Source: a virus (Monodnaviria; Loebvirae; Hofneiviricota; Faserviricetes; Tubulavirales; Inoviridae). From it: 6,287 bases of DNA. The notes below the pieces were generated by a model. That model saw only the letters and a list, made by a program, of their open reading frames with translations. It was not told where the DNA came from and did no database searches. Below, piece after piece: positions 1 to 6,287 of this stretch. Numbering within the stretch: position 1 is the first letter of the stretch; each line of letters begins with the position of its first letter. The stretch covers positions 1-6,287 of IMG/VR virus record IMGVR_UViG_2695420792_000001; one strand, written 5' to 3'. A program made the position numbers and the translations under genes.

Positions 1-84
1 TTCGGGGGAAAAACGAGTATTTTTAGTCATCCTGTTTACCTCTTTCTCAGGAAGTTTAGTCTCCAGGATTCCCGGGGCGGTTCA
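1..84 (-). mobile_element. Partial IS3-family insertion sequence (IS629/IS1203-like), orfA-proximal terminal inverted repeat end; element body extends leftwards out of the window
   Basis: Bases 1-84 are the exact reverse complement of 5960-6043, which contains the terminal repeat TGAACCGCCCCGGGAATCCTGGAGA and the start of the transposase OrfA ([11 protein letters not shown]...). The element terminus is at position 84 (…TCA on the + strand). Confidence 0.85.
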
Positions 85-118
85 GGTTTCGATATCGATT
101 AAAGGTTCGATTCTGAAA

Positions 119-1048
119 ATGTCGGGAAATCCATCCCGATGGAACAGACTGGACAATTTGTTTGGTCACACTTCTGTTGATGCCTGTGTGCAGGTATACA
201 ACCGGATCCTGAATGACCTTGGTCTGCCGGAATTCACAAAATGTACGAAATTGTGGCAGAGACAGGCAAGTGAAACTGAAAAGGCCGGAACGGTTACTGA
301 TGGCGCATGTATTCGTGAAATTCACATTACATCCAACCGAACAGTCGGAGCAGATAATGTAGATGACTATATATCGGGCCTTTCAACATTACGGTATCGC
401 AATAGTGAGCCGCGATTACACAGCAACGGTAAATCAGTTGACTGGCTATCCAAAAAAGGAAACGCCTTGCTCATTTATCCGACTGTATATAATAAAGCAC
501 ATGAAATTAAGCTTCACTCCCTTAATAAAATAAAGAATAAATTCGGGGATTCATCAGCTGAAGTTTCATACATCAAAAAGATTATTGATTTCTGTCAGGA
601 ACAGGGCGTAGTCAGATTTGAGCAAAAACTTAAATCCCGGTATCTGCAACGTAACCATCTTATTTACTGGGGGCTTTCCGACTATTCAATACTCAATAAT
701 TTACATGATGATTTTTTAGCTCTTGATAAAAAGCTTATGGTGACGTCGATGGATTTTGAAACGATTAGTGAACATTTAATCAGTGAAGGCATTGTTGACT
801 CAACTCGATCAGCGAATACCACTGCGATGTATGCTATCCAGTGGATGCACGGTCACTCATTTGATTTTTCTAAAACACAGGTGCAAACCCATCGTGCCAG
901 GCTTAGAAAAATAGGTATTGACATTGCTCAGCGATGTAATATTTCCAAATTTAGCCCCGTTATTGTTAAGAAAGTGAGAGAAGTATCAGTAAGTGAATGC
1001 TTTATTCCATCATGGTATGTGAAACCACGTTATTTGCATGTTGCATAA
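119..1048 (+). CDS. Replication initiation protein (gene II-like), 5'-truncated by the IS insertion; reading frame is open upstream to the IS junction at 85 and into the IS, so Met119 is not the native start
   Basis: Large ORF immediately upstream of the gene V homologue, as in the Ff gene order. The frame has no stop between position 29 and 1048, so it runs across the IS junction. It contains a Y-x3-Y-x-K motif (IYPTVYNK, nt 476-496) reminiscent of catalytic tyrosine motifs in rolling-circle initiators. No direct sequence alignment is possible from memory. Confidence 0.55.
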   Translation: MSGNPSRWNRLDNLFGHTSVDACVQVYNRILNDLGLPEFTKCTKLWQRQASETEKAGTVTDGACIREIHITSNRTVGADNVDDYISGLSTLRYRNSEPRLHSNGKSVDWLSKKGNALLIYPTVYNKAHEIKLHSLNKIKNKFGDSSAEVSYIKKIIDFCQEQGVVRFEQKLKSRYLQRNHLIYWGLSDYSILNNLHDDFLALDKKLMVTSMDFETISEHLISEGIVDSTRSANTTAMYAIQWMHGHSFDFSKTQVQTHRARLRKIGIDIAQRCNISKFSPVIVKKVREVSVSECFIPSWYVKPRYLHVA

Positions 1049-1060
1049 GAGGATATTTAA

Positions 1061-1348
1061 ATGATTAAGATTGAAATTAAACAGTCTCAGGCCATTGCCG
1101 ATACGCGTTCTGGCGTGTCGAAGTCGACCGGGCAGGCGTATACAATTAATGAGCAGTCTGCATATATTTTTCTTGGCCAGGATTATCCACAACTCTTCAA
1201 GTTGAATCTTGACGCGGGTCAGGCACCATACCCGGCGGGATTATATACATTACATCCATCCAGTATTTACGTCGGTGATTTCCAGAAATTACGGGTAGGA
1301 AGAATCGTTCTGATTCCATATCAGGAAAATAAAGAACAGACTAAATAA
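1061..1348 (+). CDS. ssDNA-binding protein, Ff gene V protein homologue
   Basis: The 95-aa product MIKIEIKQSQA..TRSGVS...YTINEQ..Y..LG..YP.L.K..LD.GQ.PY..GLYT.H.SS..VG.F aligns along most of its length with recalled M13 gVp (MIKVEIKPSQAQFTTRSGVSRQGKPYSLNEQ...GLYTVHLSSFKVGQF). RBS AAGAGGA sits about 8 nt upstream. Confidence 0.9.
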   Translation: MIKIEIKQSQAIADTRSGVSKSTGQAYTINEQSAYIFLGQDYPQLFKLNLDAGQAPYPAGLYTLHPSSIYVGDFQKLRVGRIVLIPYQENKEQTK

Positions 1349-1357
1349 GGTATCGCT

Positions 1358-1576
1358 ATGGCTTCTCAGAATATAATGACTGGTAAGATTTGTGATGGCA
1401 ATACTGAGCAGAACTGCCAGATAATAACATTAAATTCCTCTGAGTTGCCATATCAGCAGCTCCCTCCGGCAGAAGATATTGCACTGGTATGGGGAACTGC
1501 TTTTACCTCTGTAATCGTCCTTTATTTAGTATCACACTGTATTGGACTCGTTTTAAATATGATAAAGAGAGCCTAA
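1358..1576 (+). CDS. Small protein with C-terminal hydrophobic segment, in the position of Ff genes VII/IX (putative minor virion cap protein)
   Basis: 72-aa ORF between the gene V and gene VIII homologues. It has a hydrophilic N-terminal half and one C-terminal hydrophobic helix (ALVWGTAFTSVIVLYLVSHCIGLVL). An AGG motif lies upstream. The call rests on synteny only. Confidence 0.4.
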   Translation: MASQNIMTGKICDGNTEQNCQIITLNSSELPYQQLPPAEDIALVWGTAFTSVIVLYLVSHCIGLVLNMIKRA

Positions 1577-1578
1577 TT

Positions 1579-1800
1579 ATGAAAAAGACCATTTTGAAAT
1601 CAGCTGTTGTTATTGCTTCCGTAGTACCTTTTCTGGCTAATGCAGCAGAGTCTGCCGGAGTGGATTTTACTGCATTGACTAATGCAGTGTCATTCGACAG
1701 TGTAATTGTGGCAATTATGTCCGTAGCCGGCATTTTGGTTGGTCTTTATGCCTCCATTGCCGGGGCAAAAACAGTTCTGCGTATGATCCGTGGGGCCTGA
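1579..1800 (+). CDS. Major coat protein precursor (gene VIII-like), 73 aa
   Basis: MKKTILKSAVVIASVVPFLANA is a signal peptide with an A-x-A cleavage site. The mature part has an acidic N-terminus (AESAGVDF), a hydrophobic core and a basic C-terminus (KTVLRMIRGA). Length equals the 73-aa M13 pVIII precursor. I prefer the ATG at 1579 to the ORF-track start at 1489, which would overlap the preceding gene. Confidence 0.8.
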   Translation: MKKTILKSAVVIASVVPFLANAAESAGVDFTALTNAVSFDSVIVAIMSVAGILVGLYASIAGAKTVLRMIRGA

Positions 1801-1807
1801 TAATACG

Positions 1808-1825
1808 GGCAGGGGAAACCCTGCC
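1808..1825 (+). terminator. Stem-loop downstream of the major coat protein gene (GGCAGGG-GAAA-CCCTGCC), candidate intrinsic terminator
   Basis: A perfect 7-bp GC-rich stem with a GAAA tetraloop begins 8 nt after the gene VIII stop. The downstream T tract is weak (TTCAGGAGTTTCTG). Ff phages carry a terminator at this position between genes VIII and III. Confidence 0.45.
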
Positions 1826-1922
1826 TTCAGGAGTTTCTGTGATATTACATTTCTGGCTAATTACCTGTTTTCTCTGGGGTCTTCTTTGTGCCTGGGCAGT
1901 TATAAAAGGATTAGGAGGGTAA

Positions 1923-3188
1923 ATGAAAACTCTTTTAATTGCATTGTTGTTATCTATCATTAGCTTTTATTCATACAGTGCAGAGAACGCAGCTGTTATT
2001 AATCAGACCATTTCAGGAACCATTAAAAACAAAATTACACAGCGTGGTTTCTCAGCGAATGATCCTCGATACTACGGAACATTAAAAGGTATTTCAGGTT
2101 ATCTAAATTCTACCGCTTCAGGTTCGAAAGCTTATACCGTTGCAGGTGTCTCTGGTCGTTCGTGGTTATCAGTTGGACTCAGAGGGGCTTTGTTAAGCCG
2201 CGGTACGCTTATAGCTCTTGCCGCTTCCGGTGCGGTGGCATGGCTAATTGAGACTGAGGACTCCGTACAAATCAAAGTAAAAGAAATAACGGGAGAGCAG
2301 GGTGTTAAAGGGTTTTACTGGAATATTGGCGCAGAAAGCTATGTTACAGCAACTGAGGGAGCTCAGTCGATATGCCAGCATAATCCGGCGTTCTGTCAGA
2401 CATACATAGTTGAGCAATATAATGCAGACCCGACAAGGTCTGATTTAAGAACCATCAAATTTTATATTGATTCATCTAAAACACAGCTTTGGGCATCACG
2501 AACTGCAAACCTTGTTTCCTGCGGTACAAATAAGGTTATGCCTACATGTCAGCCTGATTATGTGCCGGGTAGTAATGAAGTAATTAAAACCGTTAGCGTA
2601 CAGGATGCTATTAATAGCATTTCAGATACGGAAATGCAGACAGATCTTTCGCCAGAAGTTATTTCTGATGTTGTAAATAATGCATGGCAAAAAGCAGCCT
2701 CCGAAGCAGGGTATTCTGGTTTTGCATACGACCACACCAGACCAGTGACAGCGCGTGATGTAACTGCTTCAACTGGTGCTGCAAAGCCCGCTGTATCTGA
2801 CTTTCTCAAACCGTCAGACAAACCCGATTTTACACTACCTGCTGACACAACAGGGACAACACCAACCAATCCATCGACAGGAGAACAGGTTAATCTTGGT
2901 GATGATCCTGGTATTGGGCCGCCTGAACTGGAAAATATACCTGCAGGTACTGAAATTTTATCTCCATTATTATCATTCAACCCCTTTGAAGATTCAGCCG
3001 ATGCACTTAATGCAGAAAGCGAAAGAATTAAATATGCGGAGTGTCCAAAACCTGTACTGGATGTTTTTAACGGACAATATAAGTTAGAAACACATTGTAC
3101 ATTATTAAATAATAACGCTGCGATGATTGGTGTTATTTTTCTGTTCATTTACTCAATAGCAGCGTTCAGAATTATCCTTTCTGCATAA
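1923..3188 (+). CDS. Adsorption/minor coat protein (gene III-like), 421 aa
   Basis: Strong RBS AGGAGG about 5 nt upstream. The signal peptide MKTLLIALLLSIISFYSYSAE resembles the recalled M13 pIII leader (MKKLLFAIPLVVPFYSHSAE). The C-terminus has two Cys (ECPKP...THCTLL) followed by a membrane anchor (AAMIGVIFLFIYSIAAFRIIL), as in M13 pIII. A Pro/Thr/Gly-rich linker lies in the middle. Size matches pIII (424 aa). Confidence 0.85.
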   Translation: MKTLLIALLLSIISFYSYSAENAAVINQTISGTIKNKITQRGFSANDPRYYGTLKGISGYLNSTASGSKAYTVAGVSGRSWLSVGLRGALLSRGTLIALAASGAVAWLIETEDSVQIKVKEITGEQGVKGFYWNIGAESYVTATEGAQSICQHNPAFCQTYIVEQYNADPTRSDLRTIKFYIDSSKTQLWASRTANLVSCGTNKVMPTCQPDYVPGSNEVIKTVSVQDAINSISDTEMQTDLSPEVISDVVNNAWQKAASEAGYSGFAYDHTRPVTARDVTASTGAAKPAVSDFLKPSDKPDFTLPADTTGTTPTNPSTGEQVNLGDDPGIGPPELENIPAGTEILSPLLSFNPFEDSADALNAESERIKYAECPKPVLDVFNGQYKLETHCTLLNNNAAMIGVIFLFIYSIAAFRIILSA

Positions 3189-3197
3189 AGGTGATTT

Positions 3198-3485
3198 ATG
3201 TTTGGCATCATGACCTCTGTTTTATATGGCGTTCTTGGGTTTTTATTGCGCTCAGTTATTGTGAAGTTTACGGTGTTTTTTGCATTGTATTTTATTGTGC
3301 AGGAATTCGTGCCGCTTATTCTCGATATGGTTAATCGCCAACTCCCACTTCTTGCGTTAATTTCAAGTATTCCAGATAGCCTGAAATATTTCTTCTCTGT
3401 TTTTAAAGTTATAGATGGGATTAACATAATACTTTCAGCTTTTGTGACTCGCTTTATTATTCGTCGAATTCCGGTAATAGGATAA
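3198..3485 (+). CDS. Minor coat protein (gene VI-like), hydrophobic 95 aa
   Basis: Highly hydrophobic small protein immediately after gene III and before gene I, matching Ff synteny. RBS AAGGTGA upstream. Confidence 0.7.
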   Translation: MFGIMTSVLYGVLGFLLRSVIVKFTVFFALYFIVQEFVPLILDMVNRQLPLLALISSIPDSLKYFFSVFKVIDGINIILSAFVTRFIIRRIPVIG

Positions 3486-3489
3486 TTTT

Positions 3490-4515
3490 ATGGCTGTATC
3501 ATTGTATATGGGTGTGATGGGGAGCGGTAAAACATACGAGGTTGTTTACAGTGTTATTATCCCTGCGGTTTCAGCAGGCCGCCGTGTAATCACCAATATC
3601 AAAGGGATAAATGAAGAGAAAATACATGAGTATTGTCGTTCTAAATTCAAGACTAAGCAGCCTGGTCGTGTTGTTTTCGCATCGACGGATGAAATATTAA
3701 AGGATGATTTCTTCCCTTTTTACTCTGATGATGAATCTTCAGAACAAAAAGCAGCATTTTGTGAATATGGTGATCTGATTTGTCTTGATGAATTATGGTC
3801 AATATGGCCATCGGACTCAAAACTATCTGAGGCACATAAAAGATTTATTTCAATGCACCGTCATATGACACATGCTGTTAGTGGGGTATCATGTGATTTG
3901 GTCATCATCAATCAGGGTGTAGATGGTGTACCCCGGTATCTTAAAGAGCGTATTGAATCGACATACCGGATGACCAAACTAAAATCTTTGGGGCTATCAA
4001 AGTCATATCGTGTCGATGTTTTTTCTGGTGCCAAAGTATTCAAAAATAATAAAGTCAGTACTCGTAACTATCAGTACAAAAAAGCCGTTTTTGAATTATA
4101 CAAATCTTATGAAACCACTAACGGAATGGAAGCGACAACAGACTCTAGACAAAACGTTTTTTCATCCGCCTTTCTTTGGGTGAAAATTGCATTTTTATTA
4201 TTTATTGTACTGGCTTCTATATATTCAATAAGAACGGTCTGGGTGGATATTAGAGGAGAGTCAGTACCAGAGCCGAAACATACCGAACCGGAGGTTGTAC
4301 TGCCTTCATCAGAAAAGATTGCGAAACCTGATGCCCCGTACTCAAAGCGCTGGCGTATTGCCGGGGAGTTAAAATCAGATTATGTCAGCAAGGTTGTTCT
4401 TACAGACAGCAATGGTCGGTTTAGAACGCTACCGGCAAATCAGTTCGACGGAGAAGGTTTTACTTTAAGTGGAATCATTGATGGTGAAATTGTCACCTAT
4501 TTTACTGGGGGTTAA
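3490..4515 (+). CDS. Phage assembly protein pI (Zot-family P-loop NTPase), 341 aa
   Basis: The N-terminus MAVSLYMGVMGSGKTYEVV carries a Walker A motif (GxxGSGKT) and resembles recalled M13 pI (MAVYFVTGKLGSGKT). A single transmembrane helix (FLWVKIAFLLFIVLASIYSI) lies about two thirds along the protein. It sits directly upstream of the secretin gene. Confidence 0.9.
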   Translation: MAVSLYMGVMGSGKTYEVVYSVIIPAVSAGRRVITNIKGINEEKIHEYCRSKFKTKQPGRVVFASTDEILKDDFFPFYSDDESSEQKAAFCEYGDLICLDELWSIWPSDSKLSEAHKRFISMHRHMTHAVSGVSCDLVIINQGVDGVPRYLKERIESTYRMTKLKSLGLSKSYRVDVFSGAKVFKNNKVSTRNYQYKKAVFELYKSYETTNGMEATTDSRQNVFSSAFLWVKIAFLLFIVLASIYSIRTVWVDIRGESVPEPKHTEPEVVLPSSEKIAKPDAPYSKRWRIAGELKSDYVSKVVLTDSNGRFRTLPANQFDGEGFTLSGIIDGEIVTYFTGG

Positions 4516-4516
4516 T

Positions 4517-5728
4517 ATGAAATTATTTTATATCATAATAATGGTATTTATGATTCCACCTGCATTATCAAAAGGCGTTATACTGAATCTCTCAGGATTA
4601 ACGCTTAATGATGCCATTACTTTGTTTTATACTGAAGTTATGAGAAAACCGTTCATGGTTTCTCCTGAACTTATCACGGACAAACGACAAGTTAATTTCA
4701 ATATTACGCCAGATATGGATGAGTATACGTTTATTATGCGTTATCTCCAGAATGCCGGAGTCTCTGTAGCCAGAAAAAATGGTGTGGATTACTTTTATCT
4801 CCAGGAGAAAAAAGTATACGAAGCCCCGAAATATTCTTTTGTTTACACACCACAGTACCGTTCTGTTGCTTATCTGGCTGATATTCTTCAGTCACAAGTG
4901 AGCGGGTCATTTTCAAATGGTGGGCAAATAGGGCATGGCGATGTTTCTCCTGCGATGATTAAAGACAATACCGCATCCGATTTTTTGAGCAGAAATGGGG
5001 ATGTACTTGTTTTTTACGGTACGAAAAAAGACATTCAGCGGGTCGAAGATTTGCTTCCTCTTATCGACCGGGCCGCCGAAGAAGTTATTGTCGCCGGGTA
5101 CGTGTTTGAGGTTCAGACGTCTGAGCGAAATGGTTCTGGCCTGGCACTGGCTGCCAAACTTATGTCGGGAAAATTCACAATAGAAACGGGTACTGCACAA
5201 GGACTCAGCAACTTTGTCCGTTTCAGTTCTGGATCGCTCGATGCACTTTATGAGTTGTTCAGAACAGACAGCCGTTTTCACGTCGTCAGTTCGCCACAAT
5301 TGCGGGTCAGAAATGGCTCTAAAGCATCATTTTCTGTGGGATCTGACGTGCCGGTACTCGGTCAGGTCAGCTATGTTGATGGTCGTCCGGTTCAGTCCAT
5401 TGATTATCGTTCAAGTGGCGTAATTTTTAACGTTCAGCCGCAAATCCGGGCTGCTACGATTGACCTTAATATTCATCAGCAACTGTCTAATTTTGCAAAA
5501 ACAGAGACTGGGGTGAATAACAGCCCGACGCTCATTAAACGGGAGGTGAACACCGATGTTTCGCTCAAGGATGGCGACATAATTTTACTTGGTGGTCTGG
5601 CTGAGAATAAAGACAGTAATGCAGATACGGGCCTGTCATTTTTGCCGTCATGGTTCGGAACAACGGCAACTGAAAAAGCAAAAACAGACATCATTATTGT
5701 ACTTCAGGCCAGAAAAATCAGGCGGTGA
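4517..5728 (+). CDS. Secretin, phage pIV-like outer-membrane export channel, about 403 aa
   Basis: Signal peptide MKLFYIIIMVFMIPPALS. The C-terminal secretin-type region (VSLKDGDIILLGGLAENKDSNADTGLSFLPSWFG) resembles the recalled pIV C-terminus (…MDGQPLLLGGL…GVPFLSKIP…). I chose the start at 4517 because it follows the gene I stop (4513-4515) and a GGGGG RBS; the ORF-track start at 4469 would lie inside gene I. Confidence 0.88.
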   Translation: MKLFYIIIMVFMIPPALSKGVILNLSGLTLNDAITLFYTEVMRKPFMVSPELITDKRQVNFNITPDMDEYTFIMRYLQNAGVSVARKNGVDYFYLQEKKVYEAPKYSFVYTPQYRSVAYLADILQSQVSGSFSNGGQIGHGDVSPAMIKDNTASDFLSRNGDVLVFYGTKKDIQRVEDLLPLIDRAAEEVIVAGYVFEVQTSERNGSGLALAAKLMSGKFTIETGTAQGLSNFVRFSSGSLDALYELFRTDSRFHVVSSPQLRVRNGSKASFSVGSDVPVLGQVSYVDGRPVQSIDYRSSGVIFNVQPQIRAATIDLNIHQQLSNFAKTETGVNNSPTLIKREVNTDVSLKDGDIILLGGLAENKDSNADTGLSFLPSWFGTTATEKAKTDIIIVLQARKIRR

Positions 5729-5959
5729 GAGCAGGGCGGCCAGCCCCGCAGCTCCGTGAGGAGCTGGCCGTACTGAGACACCGACTGTTGATTGATTGTG
5801 TAAATCATGAACGGCGTGATTTGCGCATGCGCAAATTTCTCGTCAATTCTTATGGGGAATCTATGGCTACAAAGTTGAAGTTTATCCGACTGAAAATTGA
5901 AGATGAGTTAATCCAGCCGGTTAATAATCTGGCAGGCATTCGCGATGAGTTAAAGGCCG
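5729..5959 (+). promoter_or_regulatory. Remnant of the phage intergenic region, truncated at 5959/5960 by the IS insertion; contains a GC-rich dyad and a perfect 18-bp palindrome
   Basis: Located after the gene IV stop, where Ff phages carry a terminator, the packaging signal and the origins. Hairpin CAGCTCC-GTGA-GGAGCTG at 5749-5766, or the alternative CGGCCAGC/GCTGGCCG pairing at 5737-5770. Perfect palindrome ATTTGCGCATGCGCAAAT at 5819-5836. Confidence 0.5.
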
Positions 5960-6287
5960 TGAACCGCCCCGGGAATCCTGGAGACTAAACTTCCTGAGAA
6001 AGAGGTAAACAGGATGACTAAAAATACTCGTTTTTCCCCCGAAGTCCGTCAACGGGCAGTCCGTATGGTTCTGGAAAGTCAGGATGAATATGACTCACAG
6101 TGGGCGGCAATTTGTTCCATTGCCCCAAAGATTGGCTGTACGCCGGAGACTCTGCGTGTCTGGGTTCGCCAGCATGAGCGGGATACCGGGGCGGTGATGG
6201 TGGGCTCACCAGCGCTGAACGTCAGCGTCTGAAAGAGCTGGAACGTGAAAATCGTGAACTGCGCCGCAGTAACGATATCCTTCGCCA
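5960..6287 (+). mobile_element. Partial IS3-family insertion sequence (IS629/IS1203-like), orfA-proximal end; element continues beyond the window
   Basis: Terminal repeat starts TGAACCGCCCCGGG at 5960. OrfA begins at 6014 with [23 protein letters not shown]…[18 protein letters not shown], which matches my recollection of IS629 OrfA. Identical over 84 bp to the inverted copy at 1-84. Confidence 0.9.
6014..6232 (+). CDS. IS3-family transposase OrfA (helix-turn-helix N-terminal part); frame is interrupted before the leucine-zipper segment, which continues in the -1 frame from 6178 to the window end
   Basis: The ORF encodes the HTH-like N-terminus and stops at 6230-6232. The leucine-zipper-like sequence [19 protein letters not shown] is read in the -1 frame from 6229 onward. 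The two frames overlap at 6178-6232, around a G4 run at 6188-6191. Confidence 0.7.

Follow-up and report, generated by a model that had tools for sequence, protein, structure and literature searches.

How did a segment of filamentous phage DNA come to lie between two inverted copies of the same insertion sequence (IS) end, and does this arrangement exist outside the assembly? The window (the whole 6,287-nucleotide stretch that was analyzed) is the complete contig CYEH01000056.1 of the short-read draft Escherichia coli assembly GCA_001284685.2. A literature search with the accession of this assembly returned no paper. The favored explanation, to which we assign a probability of roughly 0.88, is that two separate IS629/IS1203 insertions, each by ordinary transposition, cut the core of a dif-type filamentous prophage. 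The bracketing of the core by IS629 is judged genuine from the exact IS termini, a second assembly, and the deposited protein CTY18709.1. The structure is real but ordinary, combining known IS biology with repeat collapse at the contig ends. Features are listed in Table 1.

Table 1. Features of the window, with the basis for each assignment.
Feature	Position	Strand	Basis or comment
Left IS629/IS1203 copy, element nt 1–84	1..84	-	IRL end and first 10 orfA codons; cut at contig start
GGT, 3-bp target-site duplication of left insertion, IRL-side copy	85..87	.	Exact match of predicted reciprocal-junction protein
Replication initiator (rep), G2P / gene II type	85..1048	+	Pfam PF05144 and PF05155; lacks promoter and first 152 nt
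Single-stranded-DNA-binding protein, gene V type	1061..1348	+	Pfam PF02303, E = 1.9e-24
Small 72-aa ORF, minor coat gene position	1358..1576	+	Function by position only
Probable major coat protein, 73 aa	1579..1800	+	Inferred from sequence features and inovirus gene order
Probable adsorption protein, gene III position, 421 aa	1923..3188	+	ORF and position; no Pfam match
Gene VI-type minor coat protein (DUF2523)	3198..3485	+	Pfam PF10734, E = 1.5e-13
Assembly ATPase, gene I / Zot type	3490..4515	+	Pfam PF05707, E = 1.7e-25
Secretin, gene IV type	4517..5728	+	Pfam PF00263, E = 7e-25
14-nt palindrome TTGCGCATGCGCAA	5821..5834	.	One of four copies in complete prophage
First 97 nt of 104-aa hypothetical prophage gene	5863..5959	+	Interrupted by right IS
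CCG, presumed target-site duplication of right insertion	5957..5959	.	Analogy with left insertion and PMC3271280
Right IS629/IS1203 copy, IRL end and 5' part	5960..6287	+	Runs off contig end; 328 nt of IS
orfA of right IS copy, 72 aa, truncated	6014..6232	+	Pfam PF01527 (HTH_Tnp_1), E = 9.7e-08; alignment to complete element

The 84-bp perfect inverted repeat described in the original prediction was recovered at the window ends, with positions 1–84 and 5960–6043 being 100% complementary and the next-best inverted pair inside the window reaching at most 24 nt at 75%; the bases beside the arms (GGT at 85–87 and CCG at 5957–5959) are also as it gave them. By alignment, both arms are definitely identified as IRL, the orfA-proximal end of IS629/IS1203 (IS3 family, 1310 bp). 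The left arm has the same sequence as nt 1–84 of the complete 1310-bp element in strain E686, the right copy is identical to that element except for one missing G, and the orfA start codon is present in each arm. Assignment to IRL is possible because IRL and IRR, which in the complete 1310-bp copy are identical at all of the first 14 nt and at about 23 of the first 25, diverge after 14 nt. The missing G is a one-base deletion in a G run of the right orfA (GGGGG to GGGG, 6188–6191), and this frameshifted copy is therefore unable to supply its own transposase. Its orfA product is labeled 'IS629 ORF1 protein' or 'IS1203 transposase orfA' by the sources consulted, and the identical 72-aa product also occurs within a 1309-bp copy in the finished genome AP026503.1. 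The contig ends at IS nt 328; in the complete copy the AL1L pseudoknot (associated with the orfA-orfB -1 frameshift) lies at IS nt 336–452. As originally proposed, a single IS insertion could not produce this arrangement, in which two opposite IS copies flank the phage segment with their orfA ends inward.

Of the two IS copies, the left is visible for 84 nt and the right for 328 nt. The left arm is only 84 nt long because the contig begins at base 1, so the arm length is biologically meaningless; with two complete IS copies, the real inverted repeat would extend to about 1.3 kb. One might speculate that the 84 nt correspond to k-1 in a de Bruijn assembly with k=85; the idea leaves the 328 nt at the opposite contig end unexplained. 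Because IS629 is a repeat that the assembler was unable to read through, the contig stops within it at both ends, and it is this halting inside IS629 on each side that yields the 84-nt terminal inverted repeat. The earlier suggestion that collapsed repeat copies bound the contig is thus borne out, with the IS as the repeat that sets the contig ends.

By its gene content, the inner 5.9 kb is recognized as the core of a filamentous E. coli prophage of about 9 kb, with the genes for replication, coat, and assembly. The Pfam matches (G2P, Phage_DNA_bind, DUF2523, Zot, and Secretin) follow the canonical inovirus order, and the coat and adsorption proteins were assigned by position and sequence features only. 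The 73-aa ORF has a signal peptide, a hydrophobic segment, and a basic C-terminus, with no Pfam match. The 72-aa ORF preceding it likewise has no Pfam match and is annotated as 'hypothetical' in some finished genomes. The 421-aa adsorption-protein allele is lineage-specific, and its exact form was found on four contigs only. The 14-nt palindrome, putatively operator-like, occurs in four exact copies in the prophage of strain 6EVA vs. 0.01 expected by chance. Window position 85 corresponds to nt 153 of rep, such that codons 1–50 and two bases of codon 51 are lost; intact rep encodes 371 aa in finished genomes. A 309-aa Rep call was considered as a junction-specific marker and rejected, as the internal start on which it relies is also chosen by other gene callers where the prophage is intact. 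One further contig (L006) simply begins within an intact rep.

Uninterrupted relatives show what the core looks like without IS629. Window positions 82–5959 are present in nine finished E. coli chromosomes at 99.5–99.8% identity, with no interruption and no IS, within a prophage of about 9 kb that adjoins hipA and is frequently in tandem (one tandem unit measures 8999 bp). In strain 6EVA, the prophage is flanked on one side by a hybrid dif (position 5859 of the extracted locus, L001) and on the other by a perfect 28-nt dif (position 14891). The prophage thus integrates at chromosomal dif in related finished genomes, presumably in a Xer-dependent manner, and the circular phage genome in which the original prediction framed the insertions gives way to an integrated prophage. 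The prophage type occurs in E. coli and Salmonella. A near-identity search of phage and plasmid collections with the core DNA returned nothing, and no phage record searched exceeds 41% identity to the assembly ATPase.

At both junctions, phage sequence meets the IS precisely at the terminus TGAACCGCC. The left junction reads as the reverse complement of IRL followed by GGTTTCGATATCG, and homology to the uninterrupted prophage begins at 82 rather than 85, because the TCA of the target (GATCA/GGTTTCG in the intact prophage, or GCGATCA/GGTTTCG with two more bases) is also the triplet with which the reverse-complemented IS end finishes. The reciprocal junction was sought as a protein: the 64-aa product predicted for the rep 5' part, GGT, and IRR has an exact NCBI match (CTY18709.1) with an IRR-specific C-terminus (VEPPRVSWRVFYL), and the junction proteins predicted for 0-, 2-, or 4-nt duplications are absent from NCBI. 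By this match, the left IS629 has a 3-bp GGT duplication on both sides, which supplies, for the left copy, the 3–4 bp duplication that the original prediction advised looking for at the distal IS ends. Its claim that GGT and CCG cannot be the target duplication of one insertion holds: GGT belongs, as a 3-bp duplication, to the left insertion only. CTY18709.1 is encoded on a 46,980-bp contig, and its accession lies about two genes from that of CTY18787.1, the exact upstream 358-aa allele of the window's lineage; accessions advance by about 30 numbers per gene in the window's contig, and 26,267 numbers separate the two junction proteins. On accession spacing alone, the CTY18709.1 junction would come from the same isolate as the window. 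At the far junction of the left copy, the contig end on the rep 5' side is predicted to read ...GCGATCAGGT joined to TGAACCGCCCCGGGTTTCC.

On the right, the IS interrupts a gene that is intact, with 104 aa, at positions 13779–14093 of the 6EVA locus. The reference continues from ...AAAGGCCG into ACATAGCC, and the window instead enters the IS terminus. By analogy with the left insertion, CCG is presumed to be the duplication of the right insertion, and the right copy would be complete and followed by a second CCG; its far junction is predicted as IRR-CCG-ACATAGCC, with a contig start reading ...GGAAACCCGGGGCGGTTCA joined to CCGACATAGCCAGTG. ORFs predicted for this IRR junction, on both strands and with several duplication lengths, had no match in the protein collection; there is no in-frame start codon after the right IRR junction, so a missing protein call says little. 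Nor was the 41-aa product left by truncation of the 104-aa gene on record in the protein search.

Independent assemblies reproduce the junctions and suggest an order of events. A Logan contig from run ERR178192 (L025) is identical to window 56–5988 and consists of the 5875-nt core with 29 nt of IS on either side, thereby including both junctions; this k=31 assembly, made from raw reads with a different assembler, has no branch at either junction. A second Logan contig (L011; ERR14205758) matches window 82–5988 with zero mismatches and has the right junction as in the window, but has a complete rep (371 aa) preceded by further prophage sequence. Because this identical prophage has the right IS only, the two insertions are separate events, and the rep insertion is probably the later one. 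IS629 has struck the same prophage lineage at three different sites in three samples. Such repeated independent insertions in one lineage are consistent with the element's reported bias toward prophages, in which 62% of IS629 copies are located (PMC3271280). A reading as a tandem array, in which the two IS copies sit in separate prophage units, predicts intact-junction branches that would end contigs at 82 and 5959, and was rejected; both assemblies continue into the IS.

An alternative to two separate insertions is a history in which a single resident IS629, the right copy, made the second intramolecularly, for example by IS-dimer attack or a replicative-type inversion. This route would invert the 5.9-kb core and leave inverted IS copies around it. 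On paper it would yield all four junctions that two independent insertions give (rep 5'-IRR, IRL-core left, core right-IRL, and IRR-downstream), the duplicated GGT included, such that CTY18709.1 and the ERR178192 contig fit it equally well, and a lineage with the right copy alone does exist. The orientation of the core cannot separate the two histories, because homologous recombination between inverted copies can flip it. IS3-family elements, however, transpose by a copy-out/paste-in mechanism via a circular intermediate, which yields simple insertions; the right copy, whose visible part includes a frameshifted orfA, could not provide its own transposase; and the comparable inverted pair in E686 is accounted for by two simple insertions, each with its duplication. 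We therefore regard the intramolecular route as unlikely. It is very unlikely that the left junction arose during assembly or library preparation and that the phage segment actually runs on into an intact rep in the isolate, even though the contig is short with a multi-copy repeat at both ends and rep is intact in other samples with an identical prophage. A random chimera would not be expected to join exactly at the IS terminus, the k=31 raw-read assembly repeats the junction with no branch toward intact rep, and the reciprocal junction with its 3-bp duplication has been deposited as a protein. The artefact offered by the original prediction as one account of the bracketing is not supported, given the recurrence of both junctions in a second assembler's output and the existence of the reciprocal IRR junction.

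The original prediction had also raised a composite-transposon-like unit, that is, an IS629-core-IS629 segment moved or movable as a whole with the phage morphogenesis genes. Two IS copies do flank a passenger segment, in the contig as in the independent assembly, but the left IS has its own GGT on both sides and still adjoins the 5' part of rep, which marks an independent insertion in place; furthermore, both outer ends of the unit would be IRR, and the right copy, at least, has a broken orfA. Neither a single duplication around the unit nor its occurrence in several contexts was found: the IS-core-IS unit was seen nowhere else in 5426 finished E. coli genomes, plasmid and phage collections, or viral contigs, and a degenerate pattern for either junction had no match in viral contigs. 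This reading is accordingly hardly credible. It is also highly improbable that the inverted IS629 pair makes the core a cassette that is invertible by homologous recombination or mobilized in trans by transposase; if true, such a cassette could move the genes for Zot and secretin separately from the phage.

Under the two-insertion explanation, one IS629 would have entered the small gene downstream of the secretin gene, and the other, in the opposite orientation, would have entered rep 152 nt in; the orfA-proximal ends face each other across the core because the two copies are oppositely oriented. With rep lacking its promoter and its first 152 nt, the prophage would be defective, and in this strain it is probably a dead remnant. 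The core is also cut off from the regulatory and dif-side module. The significance beyond the isolate is small. The locus is a clean case of IS629 inactivating a prophage and illustrates why short-read contigs can end in inverted copies of one IS end; terminal inverted repeats on short phage-like contigs are not evidence for phage termini, circular genomes, or new mobile units.

Both IS629 insertion in prophages and inverted, inward-facing IS629 pairs are already known. The closest precedents are the IS629/IS1203 insertions in O157:H7 prophages (PMC3271280), which involve the same element, target duplications of 3–4 bp (3 bp here), and the same preference for prophages; here, however, the host is a small filamentous phage at dif rather than a lambdoid prophage, and the visible right copy has an orfA frameshift. 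In E. coli E686 (NZ_CP049198.1, locus L010), two identical 1310-bp IS629 copies lie in opposite orientation with IRL inward; unlike the window's copies, they are fully sequenced and have their own 3-bp duplications (GGT and ATG), and they enclose 3.5 kb of truncated non-phage genes rather than a phage core. The prophage itself shares the inovirus gene set of dif-integrating Enterobacterales prophages (UPphi901 and the YpfPhi/CUS type; PMC7307601), and the window's finished relatives show the same hybrid dif/perfect dif flanks and tandem arrays. UPphi901, which is related to IKe and I2-2, measures 7.56 kb and has a glycine-rich g3p (PMC7307601); identity with it was rejected, as the unit here is about 9.0 kb and its DNA matches no phage record. 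Repeat-collapsed draft contigs likewise end inside a multi-copy IS, as does the k=31 assembly, which ends 29 nt into the IS on both sides; unlike in misjoined contigs, the inverted IS ends here reflect a real arrangement of two copies.

The segment between the IS ends is bracketed by an 84-bp perfect inverted repeat, as the original prediction had claimed: an inverted-pair search of the window returned 1–84 as the exact reverse complement of 5960–6043 (the next-best pair being 24 nt at 75%), and the flanking bases (GGT at 85–87, CCG at 5957–5959) are likewise as described. The repeated sequence starts TGAACCGCCCCGGG and includes the beginning of a transposase orfA (Pfam HTH_Tnp_1), the product of which is named 'IS629 ORF1 protein' or 'IS1203 transposase orfA' in public sources. 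The 328 nt of IS at 5960–6287 lack one G but otherwise equal the first part of a complete 1310-bp IS3-family element in the finished genome of E. coli E686, for which RefSeq annotates a programmed frameshift together with an AL1L pseudoknot; sequence matches to the element occur in 3741 of the 5426 finished E. coli genomes (median 6 places per genome). Because the ends of the complete element are identical over the first 14 nt only, and the 84-nt match includes the orfA start, the orfA-proximal end (IRL) lies on both sides, in agreement with the earlier reading. The window and the 6287-bp contig CYEH01000056.1 (draft assembly GCA_001284685.2) are identical over the whole contig, so that the 84-nt length of the arm only reflects where the contig begins: the IS on the left is cut off there, and the right copy extends further, to IS nt 328. 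The right copy has GGGG at 6188–6191, within orfA (6014–6232), vs. GGGGG in the complete E686 copy; this loss truncates OrfA to 72 aa, and thus the copy cannot make its own transposase. An identical 72-aa product is encoded by a 1309-bp copy in the finished genome AP026503.1, so the shortened form is a circulating allele, and a sequencing error is unlikely.

The bracketed segment comprises a filamentous-phage core (see table), with small coat-like ORFs and a 421-aa ORF of adsorption-protein size at the expected positions in the ORF list. The secretin start differs among gene callers (4481, giving 415 aa and overlapping the Zot gene, vs. 4517, giving 403 aa, in RefSeq). Window 82–5959 occurs, uninterrupted in every case, in nine finished E. 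coli chromosomes at 99.5–99.8% identity, as part of a ~9.0-kb unit adjoining hipA. In strain 6EVA this unit lies between a hybrid dif (left) and a perfect 28-nt dif (right), and other genomes carry tandem copies with 8999-bp spacing, which identifies it as a prophage integrated at dif and not as a free circular genome. The left junction interrupts the replication initiator gene rep (371 aa) after 152 nt (intact reference GCGATCA/GGTTTCG), and the right junction interrupts a hypothetical gene (104 aa) after 97 nt, downstream of the secretin gene (intact reference AAAGGCCG/ACATAGCC). Both coincide exactly with the IS terminus, as is characteristic of transposition but not of a random chimera. 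At its last three positions (TCA, 82–84) the reverse-complemented IS end agrees with the target (GATCA/GGT); intact-prophage homology consequently reaches back to 82, which leaves a 3-nt ambiguity in the sequence position of the left junction.

Core genes of the bracketed prophage, with the secretin junction and palindrome copies in related loci
Feature	Position	Order or sequence	Basis
G2P-type rolling-circle initiator		first in Pfam order	Pfam
Gene V-type ssDNA-binding protein		second in Pfam order	Pfam
DUF2523 (gene VI-type) protein		third in Pfam order	Pfam
Zot-type assembly ATPase	3490–4515	fourth in Pfam order	Pfam
Secretin		fifth in Pfam order	Pfam
Secretin junction, contig L024	6197/6198 (window 5435/5436)	...TTTTTAACGTTC/TGAACCGCC	
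Palindrome copies, 6EVA locus (L001)	13737, 14112, 14586, 14684	TTGCGCATGCGCAA	

Three independent tests indicate that the bracket is genuine. The prediction was that a k=31 assembly, from this or a sister isolate, would begin ~29 nt inside the IS and so yield a 330-aa edge-truncated Rep; exactly this protein was found on Logan contig L025 (run ERR178192), which is identical to window 56–5988 (29 nt IS, 5875-nt core, 29 nt IS). Both junctions were thus recovered from raw reads by a different assembler, and no branch led into an intact rep. A second Logan contig, L011 (ERR14205758), matches window 82–5988 with zero mismatches and terminates in the right-hand IS junction seen in the window, while leftwards it continues through an intact rep, a repressor-like gene and a 358-aa gene to the hybrid dif; here the right insertion is present and the left one absent, which makes them separate events. 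For a simple insertion, the reciprocal left junction should comprise rep nt 1–152, a duplicated GGT and the other IS end (IRR), encoding a 64-aa protein with the C-terminus VEPPRVSWRVFYL, the residues of which are IRR-specific. This exact protein is present in NCBI (CTY18709.1, on a 46,980-bp E. coli contig); junction proteins predicted for 0-, 2- or 4-nt duplications were absent from the protein collection searched. Accessions in the window's contig climb by ~30 per gene (CTY44851, CTY44976, CTY45005), and CTY18709.1 is 78 numbers from CTY18787.1, the exact 358-aa allele of the prophage lineage, a spacing that fits the expected order rep'-HTH-hyp358. We infer that the CTY18709.1 contig comes from the same isolate as the window. 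The proposed assembly artefact is not upheld, given both junctions in an independent assembly and the reciprocal one in CTY18709.1; it applies only insofar as a collapsed repeat stops the contig, which is trivial.

The arrangement is best explained by two ordinary IS629 insertions, in opposite orientation, into one prophage, the first option of the original prediction, which is borne out by the two IRL junctions, the GGT duplication at the left copy and the contig with the right insertion only. The 3 bp at the left copy agree with the 3–4 bp target duplications of IS629, 62% of whose copies in O157:H7 genomes lie within prophages (PMC3271280). Intramolecular inversion would give the same four junctions and so fits these data too, but it is a less probable route for an element that moves by copy-out/paste-in, and the orfA of the visible right copy is broken. 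A tandem array with each IS in a separate prophage copy predicts intact-junction branches that end contigs at the junctions, and is excluded because both assemblies continue into the IS. The suggested composite transposon does not pass the test that defines one: the left IS carries a separate duplication and remains next to the other half of rep, while the IS-core-IS unit occurs in a single context, with no other found in finished E. coli genomes or in plasmid, phage and viral-contig collections.

In a third sample, SRR29490185 (L024), a sequence-identical prophage has an intact rep and terminates at an IS629 IRL junction within the secretin gene. This site differs from those of the window, and IS629 has therefore struck one prophage lineage at at least three sites in different isolates. 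E686 carries an equivalent pair (NZ_CP049198.1 locus L010, 1275–2584 and 6092–7401): two identical, inverted IS629 copies with IRL ends inward, each with its own 3-bp duplication (GGT and ATG), enclosing 3.5 kb that includes an N-terminally truncated DEAD/DEAH helicase gene. The original observation is correct, as is its reading as two inverted insertions, and the structure is ordinary, already-known biology. In the window, rep lacks a promoter as well as its first 50 codons and two bases of codon 51, and the core is no longer joined to the regulatory and dif-side module, so that a defective prophage is likely in this isolate.

Members of the dif-site prophage family occur widely in E. coli and, judging from protein names, in Salmonella. 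Gene calls vary among copies (L014–L021, L003), with coat, adsorption or gene VI-type genes missing and Zot called at 582 aa, differences that suggest deletions within the prophage or gene fusions. Cargo adjoining the repressor-like gene also varies (some copies have the 358-aa protein, others DUF2971 together with an MltR-type regulator). A 14-nt palindrome, TTGCGCATGCGCAA, has four copies in intergenic stretches of the small-gene/HigA-like module (0.01 expected by chance), of which only the first lies in the window (5821–5834); these look like candidate operator sites for a phage regulator. The prophage is common among E. coli assemblies. At the DNA level the core matches zero records in the phage genome collection, where its assembly ATPase reaches at most 41% identity, with inoviruses derived from human and lemur gut metagenomes, and the prophage may represent an undescribed inovirus lineage. 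It has in common with UPphi901 and YpfPhi the lifestyle described for them (PMC7307601), although it is a different phage.
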